A stretch of DNA of 64,000 nt from Myxococcota bacterium (GCA_039028615.1 JBCCHT010000040.1:44259-108258), one strand, 5' to 3'. Positions 55,072 to 63,803 are shown, numbered from the stretch's first letter. A program made the numbers and translations. The notes: generated from the letters alone by a model not told the origin.

Positions 55072-56178
<1,107 letters not shown>

Positions 56179-56780: not shown

Positions 56781-58616
56781 GTGACCGCAATCCTCGGAAT
56801 CTCCGCGTTCTATCACGACTCGGCTGCTGCGCTCGTGGTCGACGGCGAAATCATCGCCGCCGCCCAAGAGGAGCGCTTCACCCGGATCAAGCACGACCAC
56901 GCGTTCCCGATCAATGCGATCGACTACTGCCTCAAAGAGGCGGGGCTGACCAAGGATCAGCTCGACTACGTCGGCTTCTACGACAAGCCGCTCAAGAAGT
57001 TCGAGCGCCTGCTCGAGACCTACGTCAGCTACGCCCCGGTCGGCTTCAAGTCGTTTTTGCGGGCGATGCCGGTGTGGCTGCGCCAGAAGCTGCACCTGCC
57101 CCGAGAGATGCGCAAGGCGCTGGGCGGGGCCTACCAAAAGCAGTTCGTCTTCCCCGAGCACCACGAGTCGCACGCGGCCAGTGCCTTCCTGCCTTCGCCC
57201 TTCCAAGAGGCGGCCATCGTCACGCTCGATGGCGTGGGCGAGTGGGCCACGGCGAGCTGGGGCGTGGGCAAGGACAACCGGGTCGAGCTCACCCATGAGC
57301 TTCGCTTCCCGCACTCCATCGGCCTGCTCTACTCCGCGTTCACCTACTACTGCGGCTTCAAGGTGAACTCGGGCGAGTACAAGCTGATGGGTCTGGCGCC
57401 CTACGGCGATCCCAAATACACCGACAAGATTCTCGACAACCTCCTCGACTTGAAGGAGGACGGGTCCTTCCGCATGGACATGTCCTACTTCAACTATTGT
57501 CAGGGGTTGACGATGACCAATGACAAGTTCGCGGACCTCTTCGGTCGTCCGGCGCGAACGGCCGAGTCCCAGCTCGATCAAGAGCACATGGACGTGGCCG
57601 CTTCGATCCAGAAGGCCACCGAAGAAATCGTCCTGCGAATCTGCCGGCACATCCACAAGGAGACCGGCATGAAGAACCTGTGCATGGCCGGCGGTGTGGC
57701 GCTCAACTGCGTCGCCAACGGTCGAGTGCTGCGCGAGGGTCCCTTCGACGAGGTGTGGATCCAGCCGGCGGCCGGCGACGCGGGCGGAGCCTTGGGCACC
57801 GCGCTGCTCATCTGGTACCAGCTGCTCGACAACGAGCGGAAGGCGACCATGCCCGACATGCAGCACGCCTCGCTGCTGGGCCCGCAGGCCAAGGACGACG
57901 AGATCAAGGAGTACTTCGACTCGATCGGGGCGGTGTACACCCGCTACGAGACCGAGGACGAAGCGGTCGACGCCGTGTCCTCGCTGCTCGCCGACGAGAA
58001 GGTCGTGGGCTGGATGCAGGGCCGCATGGAGTTCGGCCCGCGTGCGCTCGGTGGTCGTTCCATCATCGGCGATGCCCGCAGCGAAGACATGCAGTCGGTG
58101 ATGAACTTGAAGATCAAGTTCCGCGAGTCGTTCCGGCCCTTCGCACCCACCATCCTCCGCGACCGCGTCGACGAGTACTTCGAGATGCGCCCCAACGAGG
58201 ACAGCCCCTACATGCTGCTCGTGGCGCCGGTGAAGGACGAGAAGCGTCTCGAGCAGAAGCCCGAGCACAAGGATCTGTTCGGCATCGAGAAGCTCAAGAT
58301 CCAGCGCTCGGTCGTCCCGGCCATCACCCACGTCGACTACTCGGCGCGCGTGCAGACGGTCGACGACGTCCGCAACGGTCGCTACTACAAGCTCATCAAG
58401 CGCTTCGAAGAGAAGACCGGCTCTCCGGTCATCATCAACACCAGCTTCAACGTCCGCGGCGAGCCCATCGTGTGCACGCCCGCCAACGCGTATCGGTGCT
58501 TCATGGGCACCCACATGGACGTGCTGGTCGTCGAGAACTACGTGCTGCTCAAGCCCGAGCAGCCCAAGGCCGACGTCGACCCCGAGACCTACCTCAAGGA
58601 ATTCGCGCTCGACTGA
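56781..58616 (+). CDS. NodU/CmcH-family O-carbamoyltransferase (SxtI-like)
   Basis: ILGISAFYHDSAA, QEERF.RIKH, HHESHA, DGVGE, GEYKLMGLAPYG, GGVALNC, EFGPRALG, KFRESFRPFAP, NTSFN. Confidence 0.96.
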   Translation: MTAILGISAFYHDSAAALVVDGEIIAAAQEERFTRIKHDHAFPINAIDYCLKEAGLTKDQLDYVGFYDKPLKKFERLLETYVSYAPVGFKSFLRAMPVWLRQKLHLPREMRKALGGAYQKQFVFPEHHESHAASAFLPSPFQEAAIVTLDGVGEWATASWGVGKDNRVELTHELRFPHSIGLLYSAFTYYCGFKVNSGEYKLMGLAPYGDPKYTDKILDNLLDLKEDGSFRMDMSYFNYCQGLTMTNDKFADLFGRPARTAESQLDQEHMDVAASIQKATEEIVLRICRHIHKETGMKNLCMAGGVALNCVANGRVLREGPFDEVWIQPAAGDAGGALGTALLIWYQLLDNERKATMPDMQHASLLGPQAKDDEIKEYFDSIGAVYTRYETEDEAVDAVSSLLADEKVVGWMQGRMEFGPRALGGRSIIGDARSEDMQSVMNLKIKFRESFRPFAPTILRDRVDEYFEMRPNEDSPYMLLVAPVKDEKRLEQKPEHKDLFGIEKLKIQRSVVPAITHVDYSARVQTVDDVRNGRYYKLIKRFEEKTGSPVIINTSFNVRGEPIVCTPANAYRCFMGTHMDVLVVENYVLLKPEQPKADVDPETYLKEFALD

Positions 58617-58628
58617 GGGGACTTCATC

Positions 58629-59048
58629 ATGGCCGTCATCGAGATCAACAAGGATCCATCCAAGAAGGAACTCGCCTGGTTCGGGCTGATGTTCCTCGCG
58701 TTCTTCGGCCTCATCGGCGGGATCGTGTGGTGGCGCTTCCAGCAGCCCAACGTGGCCTATGGCCTGTGGGGCGGTGCGGGCGTCATCGTGGCCCTCTACT
58801 ACGCCATCCCTGCGCTGCGGAAGCCGATCTACCTGGGCTGGCTGTACGCTGCGTTCCCCATCGGTTGGGTCATCTCCCACCTGGTGATGGGCATCATCTT
58901 CTACCTGGTGATCTCGCCGATCGCGCTCGTGTTCAAGATCATGGGTCGTGACGCGCTCGAGCGCAAAATCGACAAGAACGCCTCGACCTACTGGGTCGAG
59001 CACCGCACGGGTCACGGCGACCCGAAGCGCTACTTCAAGCAGTTCTAG
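58629..59048 (+). CDS. SxtJ-family membrane protein
   Basis: ELAWFG, TM segments, GIIFYLVISPI, GRD.L, TYW, terminal QF; conserved position after the carbamoyltransferase. Confidence 0.88.
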   Translation: MAVIEINKDPSKKELAWFGLMFLAFFGLIGGIVWWRFQQPNVAYGLWGGAGVIVALYYAIPALRKPIYLGWLYAAFPIGWVISHLVMGIIFYLVISPIALVFKIMGRDALERKIDKNASTYWVEHRTGHGDPKRYFKQF

Positions 59049-59075
59049 AGTTCTTCTCGCTGCGAGGACATTCCG

Positions 59076-59285
59076 ATGAGCGACAGCAAAGACACCAACA
59101 AGGCCTCCGACTTCGCCGCGGGGGCCCAGGAAGAATCCTCGGGCTTGATGTCCGAGTTCATGCAGTTCCTCAAGCACAACAAGAAGTGGTGGCTGCTGCC
59201 CATCTTGCTCGTGCTGCTCGTTGTCGGTGTGCTCGTGGTCCTCGGGGGCACGGCGGCCGCGCCCTTCATCTACACGCTCTTCTAG
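59076..59285 (+). CDS. DUF5989/SxtK-family single-TM micro-protein
   Basis: EFMQFL...KKWWLLP-TM-AAPFIYTLF*. Confidence 0.92.
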   Translation: MSDSKDTNKASDFAAGAQEESSGLMSEFMQFLKHNKKWWLLPILLVLLVVGVLVVLGGTAAAPFIYTLF

Positions 59286-59369
59286 CCGCCGGGCGCACGC
59301 ACCGGCCGGGATCGAGCCCCGCACCCACCCAATCCAGGAGGGCCGGGGCTCGATCGTCATCAATCCGCT

Positions 59370-60692
59370 ATGGCCAAAGTTACGCTCGAAGCCCGTCAGA
59401 TCGGCGGCGGCATCATCATCCTCGCGGGGTTGGGGATGCTGGCGTCGGCAGTCATCATCAATCCCTGGGTGGGCAAGTTCACCCGCGGCGCGACCGTCGT
59501 GGACTATGCCGACGTGCTCACCAGCTACTTCTGGTGGGCGCTCGTGCTCGGTGCCGTCACCTTCGCCTTGGGCCGCAAGGTCGCCAAGGCCAAGAGCGCG
59601 GCCGATGGGTTCTCGGTGTTCTTCCTGCTCATCGCGCTATTCGTGCTGGGCGATCGCTGGCTGCTGACCAAGTTCGGCCTGACGATCTGGGAGTACGACC
59701 CCGAGCTGCACTACGTGCATCGCAAGGGGGCTACGCGCACGCTGAACTCGGCGGGGCGCCCCGAAGACCTCATCCACATCAACGAGCACGGCTTCCACGA
59801 CACCGAGTTCCCTCGCGAAAAGCCCGAGGGTGAGCTCCGTGGGCTCATGCTGGGCGACTCGGTGACCATGGGCTTCGGAGTCACCTACGACGAGACCTTC
59901 TCCAAGAAGCTCGAGGACCACCTCGCCGAGAAGGACTCCAAGCACGAGACCCACCAGATCATGAACACGGGCGTGCACGGGTACTCGACCTTCCAGGAGC
60001 GAGTCACCTTCGAGCGCAACCTCGATCTGGACCCCGACTTCGTGGCGGTGGGCTTTTGCATGAACGACGTGACCGAGCCCTTCGTGGTCAACACGAAGTA
60101 CGGCGGCACCGGGCTCGACTACCACGGCGTCACCCAGACCCCGAACCCCATCAGCGGGCTGCTCTCCAACGAGACGGGCATCGGCCGGCTGATGCAGAAG
60201 CTCGCGCAGTCGGGCAAGTCGCTCGAGACCGCCAAGCGCTACGAGGTCTACAACGCCCGGGCGATGGCCCTGGAGTCGCGCACGAACCCCGAGTTCCAGG
60301 AGGGGTGGAAGATCGTGCTCGAGGAGATGGGGCGCCTGTACCAGGTCGCGAAGGACAACGACCTGCCCATCGTGCTGCTCATCCTGCCCTACACGTTCCA
60401 GCTCAACGACCCGGACACGCTGGAGCCGCAGAAGATCCTCATCGAGCACGCCAAGGAGCACGGGGTCGACGTCATCGACTTCATCCCGATCTTCGCCGAG
60501 GAGATTCTCCAGGAAAAAGAGCTCATCGCGCTGCTCGAGAAGCAGGGCAAGACGCCCGAGGAGATTCGCAAGTACTTCGCGTGGCGGATCAACGAGTACT
60601 TCTTCGACCAGGACCACTTCCGCGAGCCCGGCCACGACCTGGTGGCGAAGCACGTGTACGAGTGGCTGGTGGACAAGGGCCTGGCTGGCTGA
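59370..60692 (+). CDS. membrane-anchored SGNH/GDSL hydrolase-fold protein
   Basis: 3 N-terminal TMs; INEHGF.D, LGDSVTMG, NTGVHGYS, FCMND, DQDH. Confidence 0.9.
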   Translation: MAKVTLEARQIGGGIIILAGLGMLASAVIINPWVGKFTRGATVVDYADVLTSYFWWALVLGAVTFALGRKVAKAKSAADGFSVFFLLIALFVLGDRWLLTKFGLTIWEYDPELHYVHRKGATRTLNSAGRPEDLIHINEHGFHDTEFPREKPEGELRGLMLGDSVTMGFGVTYDETFSKKLEDHLAEKDSKHETHQIMNTGVHGYSTFQERVTFERNLDLDPDFVAVGFCMNDVTEPFVVNTKYGGTGLDYHGVTQTPNPISGLLSNETGIGRLMQKLAQSGKSLETAKRYEVYNARAMALESRTNPEFQEGWKIVLEEMGRLYQVAKDNDLPIVLLILPYTFQLNDPDTLEPQKILIEHAKEHGVDVIDFIPIFAEEILQEKELIALLEKQGKTPEEIRKYFAWRINEYFFDQDHFREPGHDLVAKHVYEWLVDKGLAG

Positions 60693-60713
60693 GGCTTCGG
60701 CCCCACGGAAAGG

Positions 60714-60747
60714 AAAAGCCCCACCTCGAAGGTGGGGCTTCTTTTTT
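60714..60747. terminator. bidirectional intrinsic terminator
   Basis: AAGCCCCACC-TCGAA-GGTGGGGCTT with A-tract on the left and T-tract on the right, between convergent genes. Confidence 0.88.
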
Positions 60748-60781
60748 GGCCAGCGGATGAGGCTCGATGGGCGAGCGCGGC

Positions 60782-61906
60782 TCAGATCGGGGCCCCGCCG
60801 AGGAGCGTGATGTTGTCCAAGAACACGGCGTCGAGCCCCTCGTTGCCGAACGCTTGACGATTGAAACGCCACGAGAAGGTGTGCATTCCCGCCGGCACGG
60901 GCACCAGATGGTTCGCGAGCGGTGCCACGCCTGTGGCCTGGAGGTCGAGAACTCCATCGATGCGGAACTCGAGGAAATCGAAGCCGTTGTCGCAGCTCGT
61001 GAGGTAGTCGAAGGAGATACTCCCGGCCGCGGCGAAGTCGGCGTCGATGGTGAGGTCGGTGAATCCGCCACCCGGCAGCGGGCCTGAGCGAGCCGAGTAG
61101 ATCCCGTCGATGGGGTCGACGTCATCGACGTACCAGGGGGCCGTGACGCCGACCATGAGAGCGGCGGGCATGACCCCCACCGTGTCTTCGAAGTCTTCGA
61201 AGTAGCCGTCACAGCTCGACACGACGAGCGTGCAGTCCGCGGCGCACGCCAGGGTCCCGCCACCGAAGCCCTGCGACATACACGTCTCGCCCGCCAGATC
61301 TACCCCGTCGCATTCCTCGGTGCCGTTGGTGACGCCATCGCCACAGCCAAAGCAACCCGATGTATCGAAGGTCTGGCAGCTCATCGGTTCGCAGGCGAGC
61401 GTCCCGCCCTCGAAGCCCTGTGTGATGCAGTCTTGGCCAGCGAGGTCCATGCCATCGCAGACTTCGAGCCCCGTGATCATGCCGTCGTTGCACGCCATGG
61501 TGCCGCACGCGGAGCTGTCGAAGGTGCAGTCTTCGGCACACGCCAGATCTCCGAAGTCGAAGCCTTGCGTCGTGCAGTCTTCGCCGCCCAGGTCATCGCC
61601 GTCGCACTCTTCACCGTCGTCGAGCACGCCGTCGCCACACTCACCGGTCCCGGCGGTCGTGTCTTCGGGGCTGGCGGTCGTGCTGTCTGCCGCGCTGGTT
61701 GTCGGGTCATCGGTCGCGCTGGTGGTCGGGCTATCGGTCGTGCTTTCCGCCGTGCTCGTTGGAAGCGGTGCCGTGTCGGTGCCGGACCCCGAGGTGCCCG
61801 AGGAACTCTCGCCGGCATCGGAGGCTGGATTCGGGTCGATCAGACACCCACCGACAAGAGACACCGAGCAAACCAACAAGACGCAACTCCGACGCGAATG
61901 AATCAT
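60782..61906 (-). CDS. lipoprotein with Ser/Thr-rich linker, three Cys-rich repeats and a C-terminal beta-sandwich
   Basis: VGGC lipobox; CGDG...E.CDG.DL.G..C...GF..G.LAC x3. Confidence 0.8.
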   Translation of the reverse strand: MIHSRRSCVLLVCSVSLVGGCLIDPNPASDAGESSSGTSGSGTDTAPLPTSTAESTTDSPTTSATDDPTTSAADSTTASPEDTTAGTGECGDGVLDDGEECDGDDLGGEDCTTQGFDFGDLACAEDCTFDSSACGTMACNDGMITGLEVCDGMDLAGQDCITQGFEGGTLACEPMSCQTFDTSGCFGCGDGVTNGTEECDGVDLAGETCMSQGFGGGTLACAADCTLVVSSCDGYFEDFEDTVGVMPAALMVGVTAPWYVDDVDPIDGIYSARSGPLPGGGFTDLTIDADFAAAGSISFDYLTSCDNGFDFLEFRIDGVLDLQATGVAPLANHLVPVPAGMHTFSWRFNRQAFGNEGLDAVFLDNITLLGGAPI

Positions 61907-62012
61907 TGCCTCGATTGTAGGTGCTCCGCGCTGGATGGGGTTACATCAAATGCGCGCTGCCACGATTAGAGCTTCCATCGCTGGTCATGCCTCCGTAAGA
62001 TCATCGGCGGAC

Positions 62013-63803
62013 GTGGTTCGAGGAACATGGATAGGCGCGGTCATGGGACTCGTGGTGTCGGGATGTGGGGATACCCCTCAGCTGGGTGCCGCCTCGCCCT
62101 GGCCCGACGCCTCCACGTCCGCGAGCGACGAGGAGACCACCGAGGGGGCGGTTGATCCACAGCGCCGCGAGCCGGCGGCCGATCGCGAAGGTGCAGGGGG
62201 TGAGAGCGGGGTGCGGCCGACCGAACTACCACCACCCATCGGGCCTCACTTCGTGGAGGTGACCGAAGCGGCAGGGTTGGACTACGACCCCGGGGAGCTG
62301 CTGCCGCCCCCGTTCTGCCTGTTCGACGACATCAACTGGCCGGGGCCCGGCGACTACTGCACGCCAGAGCGCTACCTCGGTGGGGCCGCGGTGGGCGACT
62401 TCGACGACGACGGTTGGCCAGATCTGTATGTGGTCCGCAAGGGTGGCCCCGGCCTGTTGTTCCACAACGACGGCGACGGGAGCTTTTCGGACGAGACGGA
62501 GACCCGCGGCCTGGTGCACGACTCCATCAGCGGCGGCGCGGCGTGGCTCGACATCGAGGGGGACGGCGACCTCGACCTGATGCTCACCGGCTTCGGGACG
62601 CTACGACACTTCCTCTATGTCAACGACGGCACGGGGTCGTTCGAGGAACAGGCACAGCCGCGCGGCGCGGCCGTGGAGACGGGCCTGATCCACGTGGGCA
62701 CGAGCATCGGCGTCGGCGACTACGACCTCGACGGCTACCTCGACATGTTCGTCGCGGATTGGCGTGCGGCGCAGATCTTGGGCAAAGAGCTCGACCACAA
62801 CCGCCTCCTGCACAACCGCGGCGCCGAGGCTCCGGGGTACTTCGAGGACGTGACCTCGCAGATGGGGATCGTCATGCAGGGACAATCGCAGTGGACCGCT
62901 TCAGGCCCCGGTGCCTTCGGGTTCGCTCCCGCATTCGTCGACCTCGATGGCGACCACTGGCCCGAGCTCTCCATCGCCGCCGACTACGGCTCTAGCCGCC
63001 TGTTCTGGAACGACGGCGCGGGTGGCTTCGTCGATGGAACGCTCGCTTCGGGCGTGAGCAACAACGCCCATGGGATGGGATCCACATTCGGTGACTACGA
63101 CGCAGACGGTGACCTGGACTGGTTCATCTCCGCGATCTGGTTCCCGGACGGCCCCGAGGGCAATCGCCTCTATCGCAACGATGGGGCAAGAACCTTCACC
63201 GAGAGCACCGACGACGTCGGCGTGCGCGATGGCGGTTGGGGCTGGGGCGCCGCGTTCTTCGATGCCGATCACGACGGTGACCTCGATCTCGGGCTGGCGT
63301 CCGGTTGGCCGTCCACCAACTTCGACGACGACCCCTTACGCCTGTGGCTCAACCAAGACGAGCATCCATGGCGCGAGGCCGCCGAGCCCATGGGGATCGA
63401 CTACCGCGGCTACGGTCGCGGCCTCGTCCCGCTCGACTACGATCGCGACGGCGATCTCGACCTGCTGGTGCTCGGCAACACGGAACCCGCCGCGCTGTAT
63501 CGCAATGACGGAGCGAAGGCCCCCTGGCTGACCGTCCGAGCCACGGGCCAGCCCCACAATCCCAGAGGCATCGGAGCCGAGGTCCGTGTTCAGACCCAGC
63601 CGGGCGGATCATGGCAGCTACGGCATATCGGAGTCGGCAGTCACCTCTTCGGCCAGCAAGACGCCGTCGCCCACTTCGGGCTAGGCAACCAAACCACCGA
63701 GGTTCATCGCGTGGAGGTCCTCTGGCCCGCCACCGGTCGACACGCAGAACTGCACCACGTCCCAATCGACTCCGCACTCGTCGTCTCCCACGACCGCCCC
63801 TGA
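62013..63803 (+). CDS. CRTAC1-family FG-GAP repeat lipoprotein with ASPIC/UnbV domain
   Basis: DFDDDGWPDL / DYDLDGYLD / DYDADGDLD repeats; RGIGAEV...HFGLG...VLWP; start 62013 or 62043. Confidence 0.92.
   Translation: MVRGTWIGAVMGLVVSGCGDTPQLGAASPWPDASTSASDEETTEGAVDPQRREPAADREGAGGESGVRPTELPPPIGPHFVEVTEAAGLDYDPGELLPPPFCLFDDINWPGPGDYCTPERYLGGAAVGDFDDDGWPDLYVVRKGGPGLLFHNDGDGSFSDETETRGLVHDSISGGAAWLDIEGDGDLDLMLTGFGTLRHFLYVNDGTGSFEEQAQPRGAAVETGLIHVGTSIGVGDYDLDGYLDMFVADWRAAQILGKELDHNRLLHNRGAEAPGYFEDVTSQMGIVMQGQSQWTASGPGAFGFAPAFVDLDGDHWPELSIAADYGSSRLFWNDGAGGFVDGTLASGVSNNAHGMGSTFGDYDADGDLDWFISAIWFPDGPEGNRLYRNDGARTFTESTDDVGVRDGGWGWGAAFFDADHDGDLDLGLASGWPSTNFDDDPLRLWLNQDEHPWREAAEPMGIDYRGYGRGLVPLDYDRDGDLDLLVLGNTEPAALYRNDGAKAPWLTVRATGQPHNPRGIGAEVRVQTQPGGSWQLRHIGVGSHLFGQQDAVAHFGLGNQTTEVHRVEVLWPATGRHAELHHVPIDSALVVSHDRP

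Follow-up and report, generated by a model that had tools for sequence, protein, structure and literature searches.

In the DltB-DltX-DltD system, a microprotein with a single transmembrane (TM) helix and a C-terminal FXYXXF motif is paired with an SGNH-type partner (PMC12148441), and PatA-PatB and AlgI-type pairs carry the same tail motif on the MBOAT itself. In DltX and PatA, FXYXXF has been defined as the motif of the acyl shuttle, and the shuttle chemistry of its tyrosine is established; the word "carbamoyl" occurs 0 times in that source (PMC12148441). Here we analyze a four-gene operon at positions 56781-60692 of a 64,000-nt stretch of DNA (the window) from Myxococcota bacterium (GCA_039028615.1 JBCCHT010000040.1:44259-108258), which encodes a carbamoyltransferase, an SxtJ-family protein, a DUF5989 peptide ending in FIYTLF and an SGNH protein. 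Our results indicate that this operon probably specifies a relay in which a carbamoyl group is carried on the tail tyrosine to an SGNH transferase. It resembles the Dlt system in its single-TM microprotein and SGNH-type partner, but it has neither an MBOAT nor DltC, the presumed loader is a soluble carbamoyltransferase and the group would be carbamoyl. In contrast to the Pat and AlgI-type pairs, its tail resides on a separate gene product or, in relatives, on the SGNH protein. Because it has no MBOAT, the operon falls outside the MBOAT-SGNH systems; it likely works as they do, though both the loader and the group would be new.

The order of the four genes is that of sxtI-sxtJ-sxtK-sxtL in saxitoxin clusters, encoding a carbamoyltransferase, two small proteins and a GDSL lipase (PMC2684587, PMC2679770), with sxtL completing the match of carbamoyltransferase, SxtJ, small TM open reading frame (ORF) and GDSL/SGNH protein. 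The sxtK gene measures 165 bp (PMC2679770) and its product is predicted to be a TM protein (10.1101/080572). In Pseudomonas fluorescens WH6, clean deletions of gvgA (SGNH), gvgB (a Lys-rich 27-aa ORF), gvgF (a carbamoyltransferase, 55% to SxtI) and gvgG (a 47-aa TM ORF) each abolish production of formylaminooxyvinylglycine (FVG) and are complemented in trans (10.1101/080572; gene table in PMC8067088, aldgamycin homologues in PMC8064604). That study pointed out that carbamoyltransferases tend to be accompanied by small TM ORFs and suggested a common mechanism, naming none; a tyrosine carrier is not proposed in the available text (10.1101/080572). The four gvg genes are likely equivalents of those in the operon, with the difference that the SGNH protein and the carrier lack TM helices, so that the gvg module would be cytoplasmic. 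Transposon hits in a Pantoea cluster fall in both the SGNH gene and the enzyme gene (PMC4010436), and the available parts of PMC5132012 and 10.64898/2026.06.11.731795 add no mechanism. In the literature searched, which leaves most subscription journals outside its coverage, we found no mechanism for SxtJ or SxtK, no mention of DUF5989 and no carbamoyl-tyrosine relay.

The anatomy of the operon is as the sequence-only reading had described it. A 611-aa NodU/CmcH-family O-carbamoyltransferase (56781-58616, +; PF02543 and PF16861) is followed after 12 nt by a 139-aa SxtJ-family membrane protein (58629-59048, +; PF19588, E 6.5e-9), after 27 nt by the 69-aa DUF5989 peptide, the candidate carbamoyl carrier (59076-59285, +; PF19451, E 6.7e-22), and after 84 nt by a 440-aa SGNH protein with three N-terminal TM helices and a predicted outward orientation (59370-60692, +; PF13472, E 2.8e-10). 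Ahead of its single TM helix the peptide has K36-K37 and then W38-W39, and it ends in the hexapeptide FIYTLF (59265-59282, +), an instance of the FXYXXF acyl-shuttle motif with Tyr66 at 59271-59273. The operon had also been described as terminator-bounded, which is valid at the 3' end only, where an intrinsic terminator-like hairpin with an 11-bp stem and a T run lies at 60716-60740 (+), since no sigma-70-type promoter was found.

To assess the conservation of this tail, we compiled 80 GTDB loci, the best 80 of at least 577 confirmed, anchored on the carbamoyltransferase because a closest-homologue search selects by shared words, and searched beside the enzyme with a DUF5989 profile from which the last 8 residues had been removed. 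This tail-independent search recovered 53 peptides in 52 of the 80 loci, all 53 ending in P-F-[IVL]-Y-x-x-[FW] with the tyrosine fourth from the C-terminus (Tyr-4) retained. Tyr-4 is also present in 146 of 148 DUF5989 representatives at 50% identity and in 119 of the 120 closest homologues, matching the C-terminal FXYXXF with invariant tyrosine of the MBOAT-SGNH shuttles. No Asp, Glu, Lys or Arg occurs in the last 28 residues in the sets of 53, 148 and 119 peptides, whereas the four motif-ending MBOATs of the source genome have charged linkers. Among 9321 genes of that genome, taken from a codon-usage script, only 6 end in [FWYL]-x-Y-x-x-[FW], namely these four MBOATs (FIYFQF or FIYFNF), the product of its one DUF5989 gene and a lipoprotein-like ORF, and the motif is therefore more than a chance ending. 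Enzyme and peptide are also linked at the level of whole genomes: the peptide is present in 77 of the 80 enzyme genomes (in the locus in 52, elsewhere in 25 of the remaining 28), and in one genus the two occur in exactly the same 11 of 18 genomes.

Three further observations concern tails of this kind. The lipoprotein-like ORF (G000:C2:82102-82503; L114:2100-2504, +) has a signal with LGVAC, is cysteine-rich, has no Pfam match, lies downstream of an AMP-ligase-like gene and ends in EEFIYFQF, the tail of three MBOATs of the genome; from its sequence it is possibly a free-standing extracytoplasmic acyl carrier. A tandem pair of DUF5989 genes with unlike tails, FIYPLF and FVYTLF, occurs at L052:6160-6614. 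Longer DUF5989 forms (21 matches, 17 of them read) were set aside, since most looked like products of a mis-called start or of read-through past a frameshift, and no match was found in phages.

The SGNH protein retains intact blocks (G162-D-S164, G204, N232-D233 and D413-x-x-H416), with S164-D413-H416 as the triad; across an alignment of 101 homologues, G162, S164, N232 and H416 do not vary. Its AlphaFold model has a pLDDT of 93.5, and a basic RKVAKAK loop between TM2 and TM3 predicts, from charge only, that the catalytic domain is outside, as for the membrane-anchored extracytoplasmic partners of the MBOAT-SGNH shuttles. Profile matches to PatB, AlgJ and AlgX are weak. The best fold match is CgnD of the crocagin cluster (PDB 8a2n; E 8e-8, TM-score 0.41 by query), a soluble protein assigned as a leader-peptide protease, in contrast to the TM-anchored protein of the window, and encoded in one cluster with the carbamoyltransferase CgnI and the unassigned cgnK. 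CgnD releases the C-terminal Ile-Tyr-Trp core of the precursor CgnA, its binding to CgnA is undetectable, and no CgnD-type hydrolase is listed, in the available text, for four carbamoyltransferase-free crocagin-like clusters (PMC10070186), which ties CgnD to carbamoylation rather than to cleavage. The crocagin locus itself was not found among 401 genomes of the class.

The sequence-only reading had proposed to score the co-occurrence of the peptide with SGNH genes and the absence of MBOAT genes. An MBOAT lies in the flanks of only 3 of the 80 loci; the source genome has 6 MBOAT matches, none on the operon contig C40. An SGNH gene lies in the flanks of only 23 loci. In 30 of 32 cassette genomes lacking an adjacent copy the SGNH subfamily of the window is encoded elsewhere, and in a test genus 8 of the 11 genomes with a cassette have it, against 1 of the 7 without. 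Among 18 other genomes with no enzyme match at 1e-100 a single one has it, and that one proved to hold a split enzyme and a diverged peptide ending in FFYAIF. In the cassette-less exception of the test genus, the SGNH gene lies directly behind an MBOAT ending in FIYFAF, and the subfamily thereby belongs among likely acceptors of acyl-tyrosine. Of the three missed cassette genomes, G158 has a diverged SGNH gene adjoining the peptide, G075 has weak SGNH matches elsewhere and G263 has none. These counts are not a statistical test, because the genomes are related to one another and the number of SGNH genes is higher in large genomes, yet from the sequence comparisons we take the genome-level link between SGNH subfamily and cassette to be real. 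The subfamily reaches 27 copies in one genome, and in the source genome one carrier gene stands against eight SGNH subfamily genes, suggesting that one core serves several transferases.

Natural fusions also join the two proteins. At L109:7075-8613, a second DUF5989 match in one genome turned out to be the end of a single 512-aa protein that combines a signal anchor, an SGNH domain, three TM helices and a DUF5989 segment ending in APFIYTLF, with PF13472, PF16822 and PF19451 all over cut-off. The fusion family comprises 17 metagenome loci (16 at 50-73% identity and one identical), and the 12 complete tails all end in APFIYTLF. An SxtJ half-gene lies upstream in 13 of these loci and the enzyme in 3, and none of the 17 contains an MBOAT. 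Basic loops ahead of the last helix place the tail and the SGNH domain on the same, predicted outer, side. An AlphaFold model of the fusion built from 13 sequences has pLDDT <50 over residues 477-512 and is uninformative on docking of the tail. We also considered the three TM helices of the fusion as SxtJ-like and dropped this idea, as no similarity was detectable (probability 0.2%).

The carbamoyltransferase of the window belongs to an SxtI/GvgF-like relay clade and shares its two-domain architecture with stand-alone NodU, TobZ and GdmN, the last two being its closest solved structures (E<=2e-74). Its translation contains GPRALGGRS, near-invariant among homologues and named as the site of the carbamoyltransferase family (PMC3037375), and it scores 153.7 bits against the 1000-bit cut-off of the NodU equivalog NF041651. 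Relay enzymes carry a C-terminal extension of the form aromatic-xxx-[FY]-x-LD, ending EFALD in the window, that stand-alone enzymes lack. In a midpoint-rooted FastTree phylogeny of 44 enzymes, from which a length filter excluded L185 and the second L177 enzyme, all 34 relay types define one clade (support 0.997), with the 10 stand-alone enzymes outside it. No SGNH gene and no credible carrier adjoined the stand-alone enzyme in 9 loci scanned, the three loose matches to the tail pattern being the enzyme's own end or frames overlapping it.

SxtJ comprises some three hydrophobic helices, and its C-terminal tail is basic and conserved. Its invariant columns are F18, P77, G79, D108 and W122, with no invariant His, Ser or Cys, and it is reduced to one helix or to a soluble form in related cassettes. 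For these reasons SxtJ looks like an adaptor rather than a catalytic stand-in for an MBOAT, which corrects the proposal that carbamoyltransferase and SxtJ together replace the MBOAT. A predicted complex of enzyme, SxtJ and peptide scored 0.40, compared to 0.01 for the best control (enzyme replaced), with contacts agreeing to at least 84% and a partner pLDDT of at least 68, the interface not being given. Of 157 solved pairs 116 reach the mark applied to this score, as do 2 of 215 mismatched pairs, with only 18 solved pairs and both mismatches at <=0.60, and the model lends weak support.

Related cassettes also occur in membrane-free form. On contig C28 of the source genome, a second cassette (G000:C28:59262-69612; L113) contains a polysaccharide deacetylase, a TM-less SGNH protein, a carbamoyltransferase and a 110-aa ORF ending in SLYVMF, the last three at 60127-61179, 61218-63047 and 63070-63402. 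Next come a multi-TM protein of unknown kind and, encoded on the opposite strand, carbamoyl-phosphate synthase-like large and small subunits. Among the 30 loci closest to the C28 enzyme, 8 (C28 included) have this layout and 22 have SxtJ and/or DUF5989. In these 8 and three plasmid loci, Tyr-4 of the soluble carriers of about 110 aa (with tails such as FVYVMY, FVYEMF and NYTFF) and a TM-less SGNH protein are found in 11 of 11. As a single query, the C28 110-aa protein has no convincing relative in 301 genomes or in Atlas, and its relatives were found by position only. A third carrier type appears in gvg-like clusters of Ralstonia, Pantoea, Streptomyces and Photobacterium, where a TM-less CgnD-like SGNH protein is followed by an unannotated basic peptide of about 35 aa ending in [ST]-[IT]-Y-P-[LM]-[RF]; the tails in the 4 loci fetched, a set that leaves Agrobacterium and Acinetobacter matches outside, are SIYPLR, STYPLR, SIYPMF and SIYPMF, all with Tyr-4. 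The small ORF after the carbamoyltransferase in such loci is homologous to the C-terminal half of SxtJ (probability 95-97% in Ralstonia and Streptomyces). By its position after gvgA, length and lysine content, gvgB likely encodes this basic peptide. No soluble or basic carrier has a Pfam match. Given that no membrane partner accompanies the soluble carriers, direct loading of the tyrosine by the enzyme seems likely.

Taken together, conservation, co-occurrence, fusions, the enzyme clade and gvg genetics provide several independent lines of support for a tyrosine-tailed carrier placed between carbamoyltransferase and SGNH protein without an MBOAT, as first proposed from the sequence, and the module is real and widespread. 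Gene content, motif, conservation, co-occurrence, fusions and clade structure are what the analysis shows; the transfer steps themselves are inferred and might run as follows. The cytoplasmic enzyme would convert carbamoyl phosphate and ATP into carbamoyl-AMP, as TobZ-type enzymes do, and would carbamoylate Tyr66 of a peptide held by SxtJ, a putative membrane adaptor keeping enzyme and peptide together. Because its last 28 residues are never charged, the tail may then swing through the membrane between loading and unloading; this is the weakest step, with about an even chance if the relay holds. If the SGNH protein acts as DltD and PatB do, its Ser164 would take the carbamoyl group and deliver it to a hydroxyl of an acceptor beyond the cytoplasm. 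Chemical reasoning makes the aryl carbamate plausible as an activated donor. As for the acceptor, the glycan originally suggested receives no support from the surroundings, there being no glycan genes beside the operon in the window, and the characterized clusters with the module make small molecules; we nonetheless regard an envelope glycan as more likely than a small molecule.

Several observations weigh against the relay. Apart from the 57 of 80 loci without an SGNH gene in their flanks (many loci end at contig ends), G263 (96% complete) and G771 have enzyme and peptide and no SGNH match at E<=0.001, G758 has generic weak SGNH matches only, and the genomes compared are related rather than independent. 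The fusions may represent one evolutionary event. The tail pattern for membrane-free cassettes was loosened post hoc (last residue F, W, Y, H or R) and matches 33 of 8870 frame ends, true carriers included. The correspondence of SxtK, GvgB, GvgG and CgnK to the three carrier types is putative, being drawn from position, size and composition. No channel is evident, SxtJ being only 139 aa long with no invariant catalytic residue, and in the relay the buried enzyme site would have to reach a tail predicted to lie outside. FVG contains no carbamoyl group, as its name and structure indicate. CgnD acts as a slow protease in vitro (20 uM, up to 96 h; PMC10070186), and SxtL has been proposed, as an untested function, to be a decarbamoylase (PMC2684587, PMC2679770, PMC3037375).

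The alternative that survives best, which we nevertheless consider unlikely, builds on that last proposal: the enzyme would carbamoylate a small molecule or sugar in the cytoplasm without any intermediary, the role of SxtJ and the peptide would be only to anchor or activate the enzyme, and the SGNH protein would be an optional decarbamoylase. The loci lacking SGNH and the two cassette genomes in which none was found agree with it, and GdmN and TobZ, the closest solved enzymes, carbamoylate their substrates directly. This is also the reading stated for SxtI/J/K/L (PMC2679770, PMC3037375). Lyngbya wollei, with sxtI truncated, sxtL absent, an acyltransferase gained and no carbamoylated analogues (PMC3037375), is compatible with relay and decarbamoylase alike. 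Direct action leaves unexplained, however, an invariant tyrosine four residues from the free C-terminus on three unrelated carriers, the fusion of SGNH protein and peptide, the location of a member of the SGNH subfamily behind an MBOAT that bears this tail and the loss of FVG upon deletion of gvgA.

It is decidedly unlikely that a relay operates without crossing the membrane, the tail being re-entrant and staying on the cytoplasmic side while the SGNH site faces inward or meets a lipid-linked acceptor at the membrane. The TM-less SGNH proteins of all 15 membrane-free cassettes, the wholly apolar tail and the dependence of the complex score on the cytoplasmic enzyme would suit such an arrangement, but the positive-inside pattern of the window SGNH protein (RKVAKAK) and of the basic loops of the fusion puts SGNH domain and tail outside, and TM peptide, full SxtJ and TM-anchored SGNH protein vary together. 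Very improbable, finally, is a pathway like that of peptides made on the ribosome and modified after translation (RiPPs), in which the peptide is the substrate and the SGNH protein cuts off its carbamoylated tail as a small product or signal, as CgnD does for crocagin, since even though CgnD is the best fold match and releases a C-terminal IYW core, and the basic GvgB-like peptides resemble a leader plus core, crocagin has its own precursor to which CgnD shows no detectable binding, the carbamoyltransferase-free clusters list no such hydrolase, each turnover would consume a 512-aa fusion protein, and the tail matches a known catalytic shuttle motif.

If correct, the carbamoyl-tyrosine relay would give the bacterial tyrosine shuttle a third type of loader, after MBOAT and AT3, and would be the first route by which carbamoylation takes place outside the cytoplasm. 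It would assign functions to DUF5989, SxtJ, many unannotated ORFs of 30-110 aa and a large SGNH subfamily and would reassign steps in the FVG, crocagin and saxitoxin pathways, and the need of these carbamoyltransferases for small partner genes may find an explanation in it. A more general proposal, which we offer tentatively and at somewhat less than even confidence, is that relay-clade NodU-type enzymes never touch the final substrate. They would instead load the tyrosine of a micro-carrier, leaving substrate-specific transfer to the SGNH protein. The module would exist in cytoplasmic forms and in a trans-membrane form, in which an uncharged tail would bring the carbamoyl group across the bilayer without the help of a channel enzyme and many SGNH proteins dispersed through a genome would share one core. 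On this view SxtL, GvgA and CgnD would all be transferases of carbamoyl groups, and not a decarbamoylase, an esterase and a protease. The family has 5222 representatives at 50% identity and extends over Planctomycetota, Acidobacteriota, myxobacteria and Alphaproteobacteria; one of the strains that have it is Sinorhizobium meliloti 1021.

On pSymB of the latter strain (L169:9788-13990), a divergent TM-anchored SGNH protein, SxtJ, a 49-aa peptide ending in APFIYTLF and the enzyme lie together, with the SGNH gene at about 482210-483538, the peptide at 484417-484566 and the enzyme at 484580-486412 of NC_003078, and in strain Ak57 an acyltransferase gene is found about 2.5 kb from an SxtJ-like gene. 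Pfam scans covering 254 of 256 first and second neighbours of the cassettes returned for the most part housekeeping genes of no related function; about 10 loci have glycosyltransferases or sugar epimerases, and one plasmid has an exopolysaccharide cluster. Six orphan SGNH genes of the source genome have neither enzyme nor MBOAT beside them (G000 C42:74882, C3:307761, C20:89927, C9:182517, C1:691971 and C2:591580); five are TM-anchored, the exception being that on C42, which adjoins a glycosyltransferase-like gene. Relay-clade enzymes at L071:10001-12883, L028:5926-8121 and L076:11434-12828 are fused, as judged by eye, to small Cys-containing and SAM methyltransferase-like domains, a domain content that could point to methyl-carbamate chemistry. 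At L057:223-2949 a glycosyltransferase-like domain is followed by a fused stand-alone-type carbamoyltransferase, upstream of a complete enzyme-SxtJ-peptide cassette, and in L047, L064, L076 and L202 the carbamoyltransferase is divided into two ORFs, a possible sequencing error or pseudogene.

In the window, no saxitoxin genes beyond the four were seen between 50000 and 64000, a genome-wide search for sxt core genes not having been made, and the scanned neighbours of the operon encode a radical SAM protein, an oxidoreductase and an FG-GAP protein. The radical SAM gene (55072-56178, -) is divergent and lies 600 bp upstream; a radical SAM gene stands at the equivalent position in the closest relative (L002). 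Immediately past the terminator lie a gene without Pfam match whose product looks secreted and repeats CDG/DLxG cysteine motifs (60782-61906, -) and one for an FG-GAP plus ASPIC/UnbV protein (61935-63803, +).

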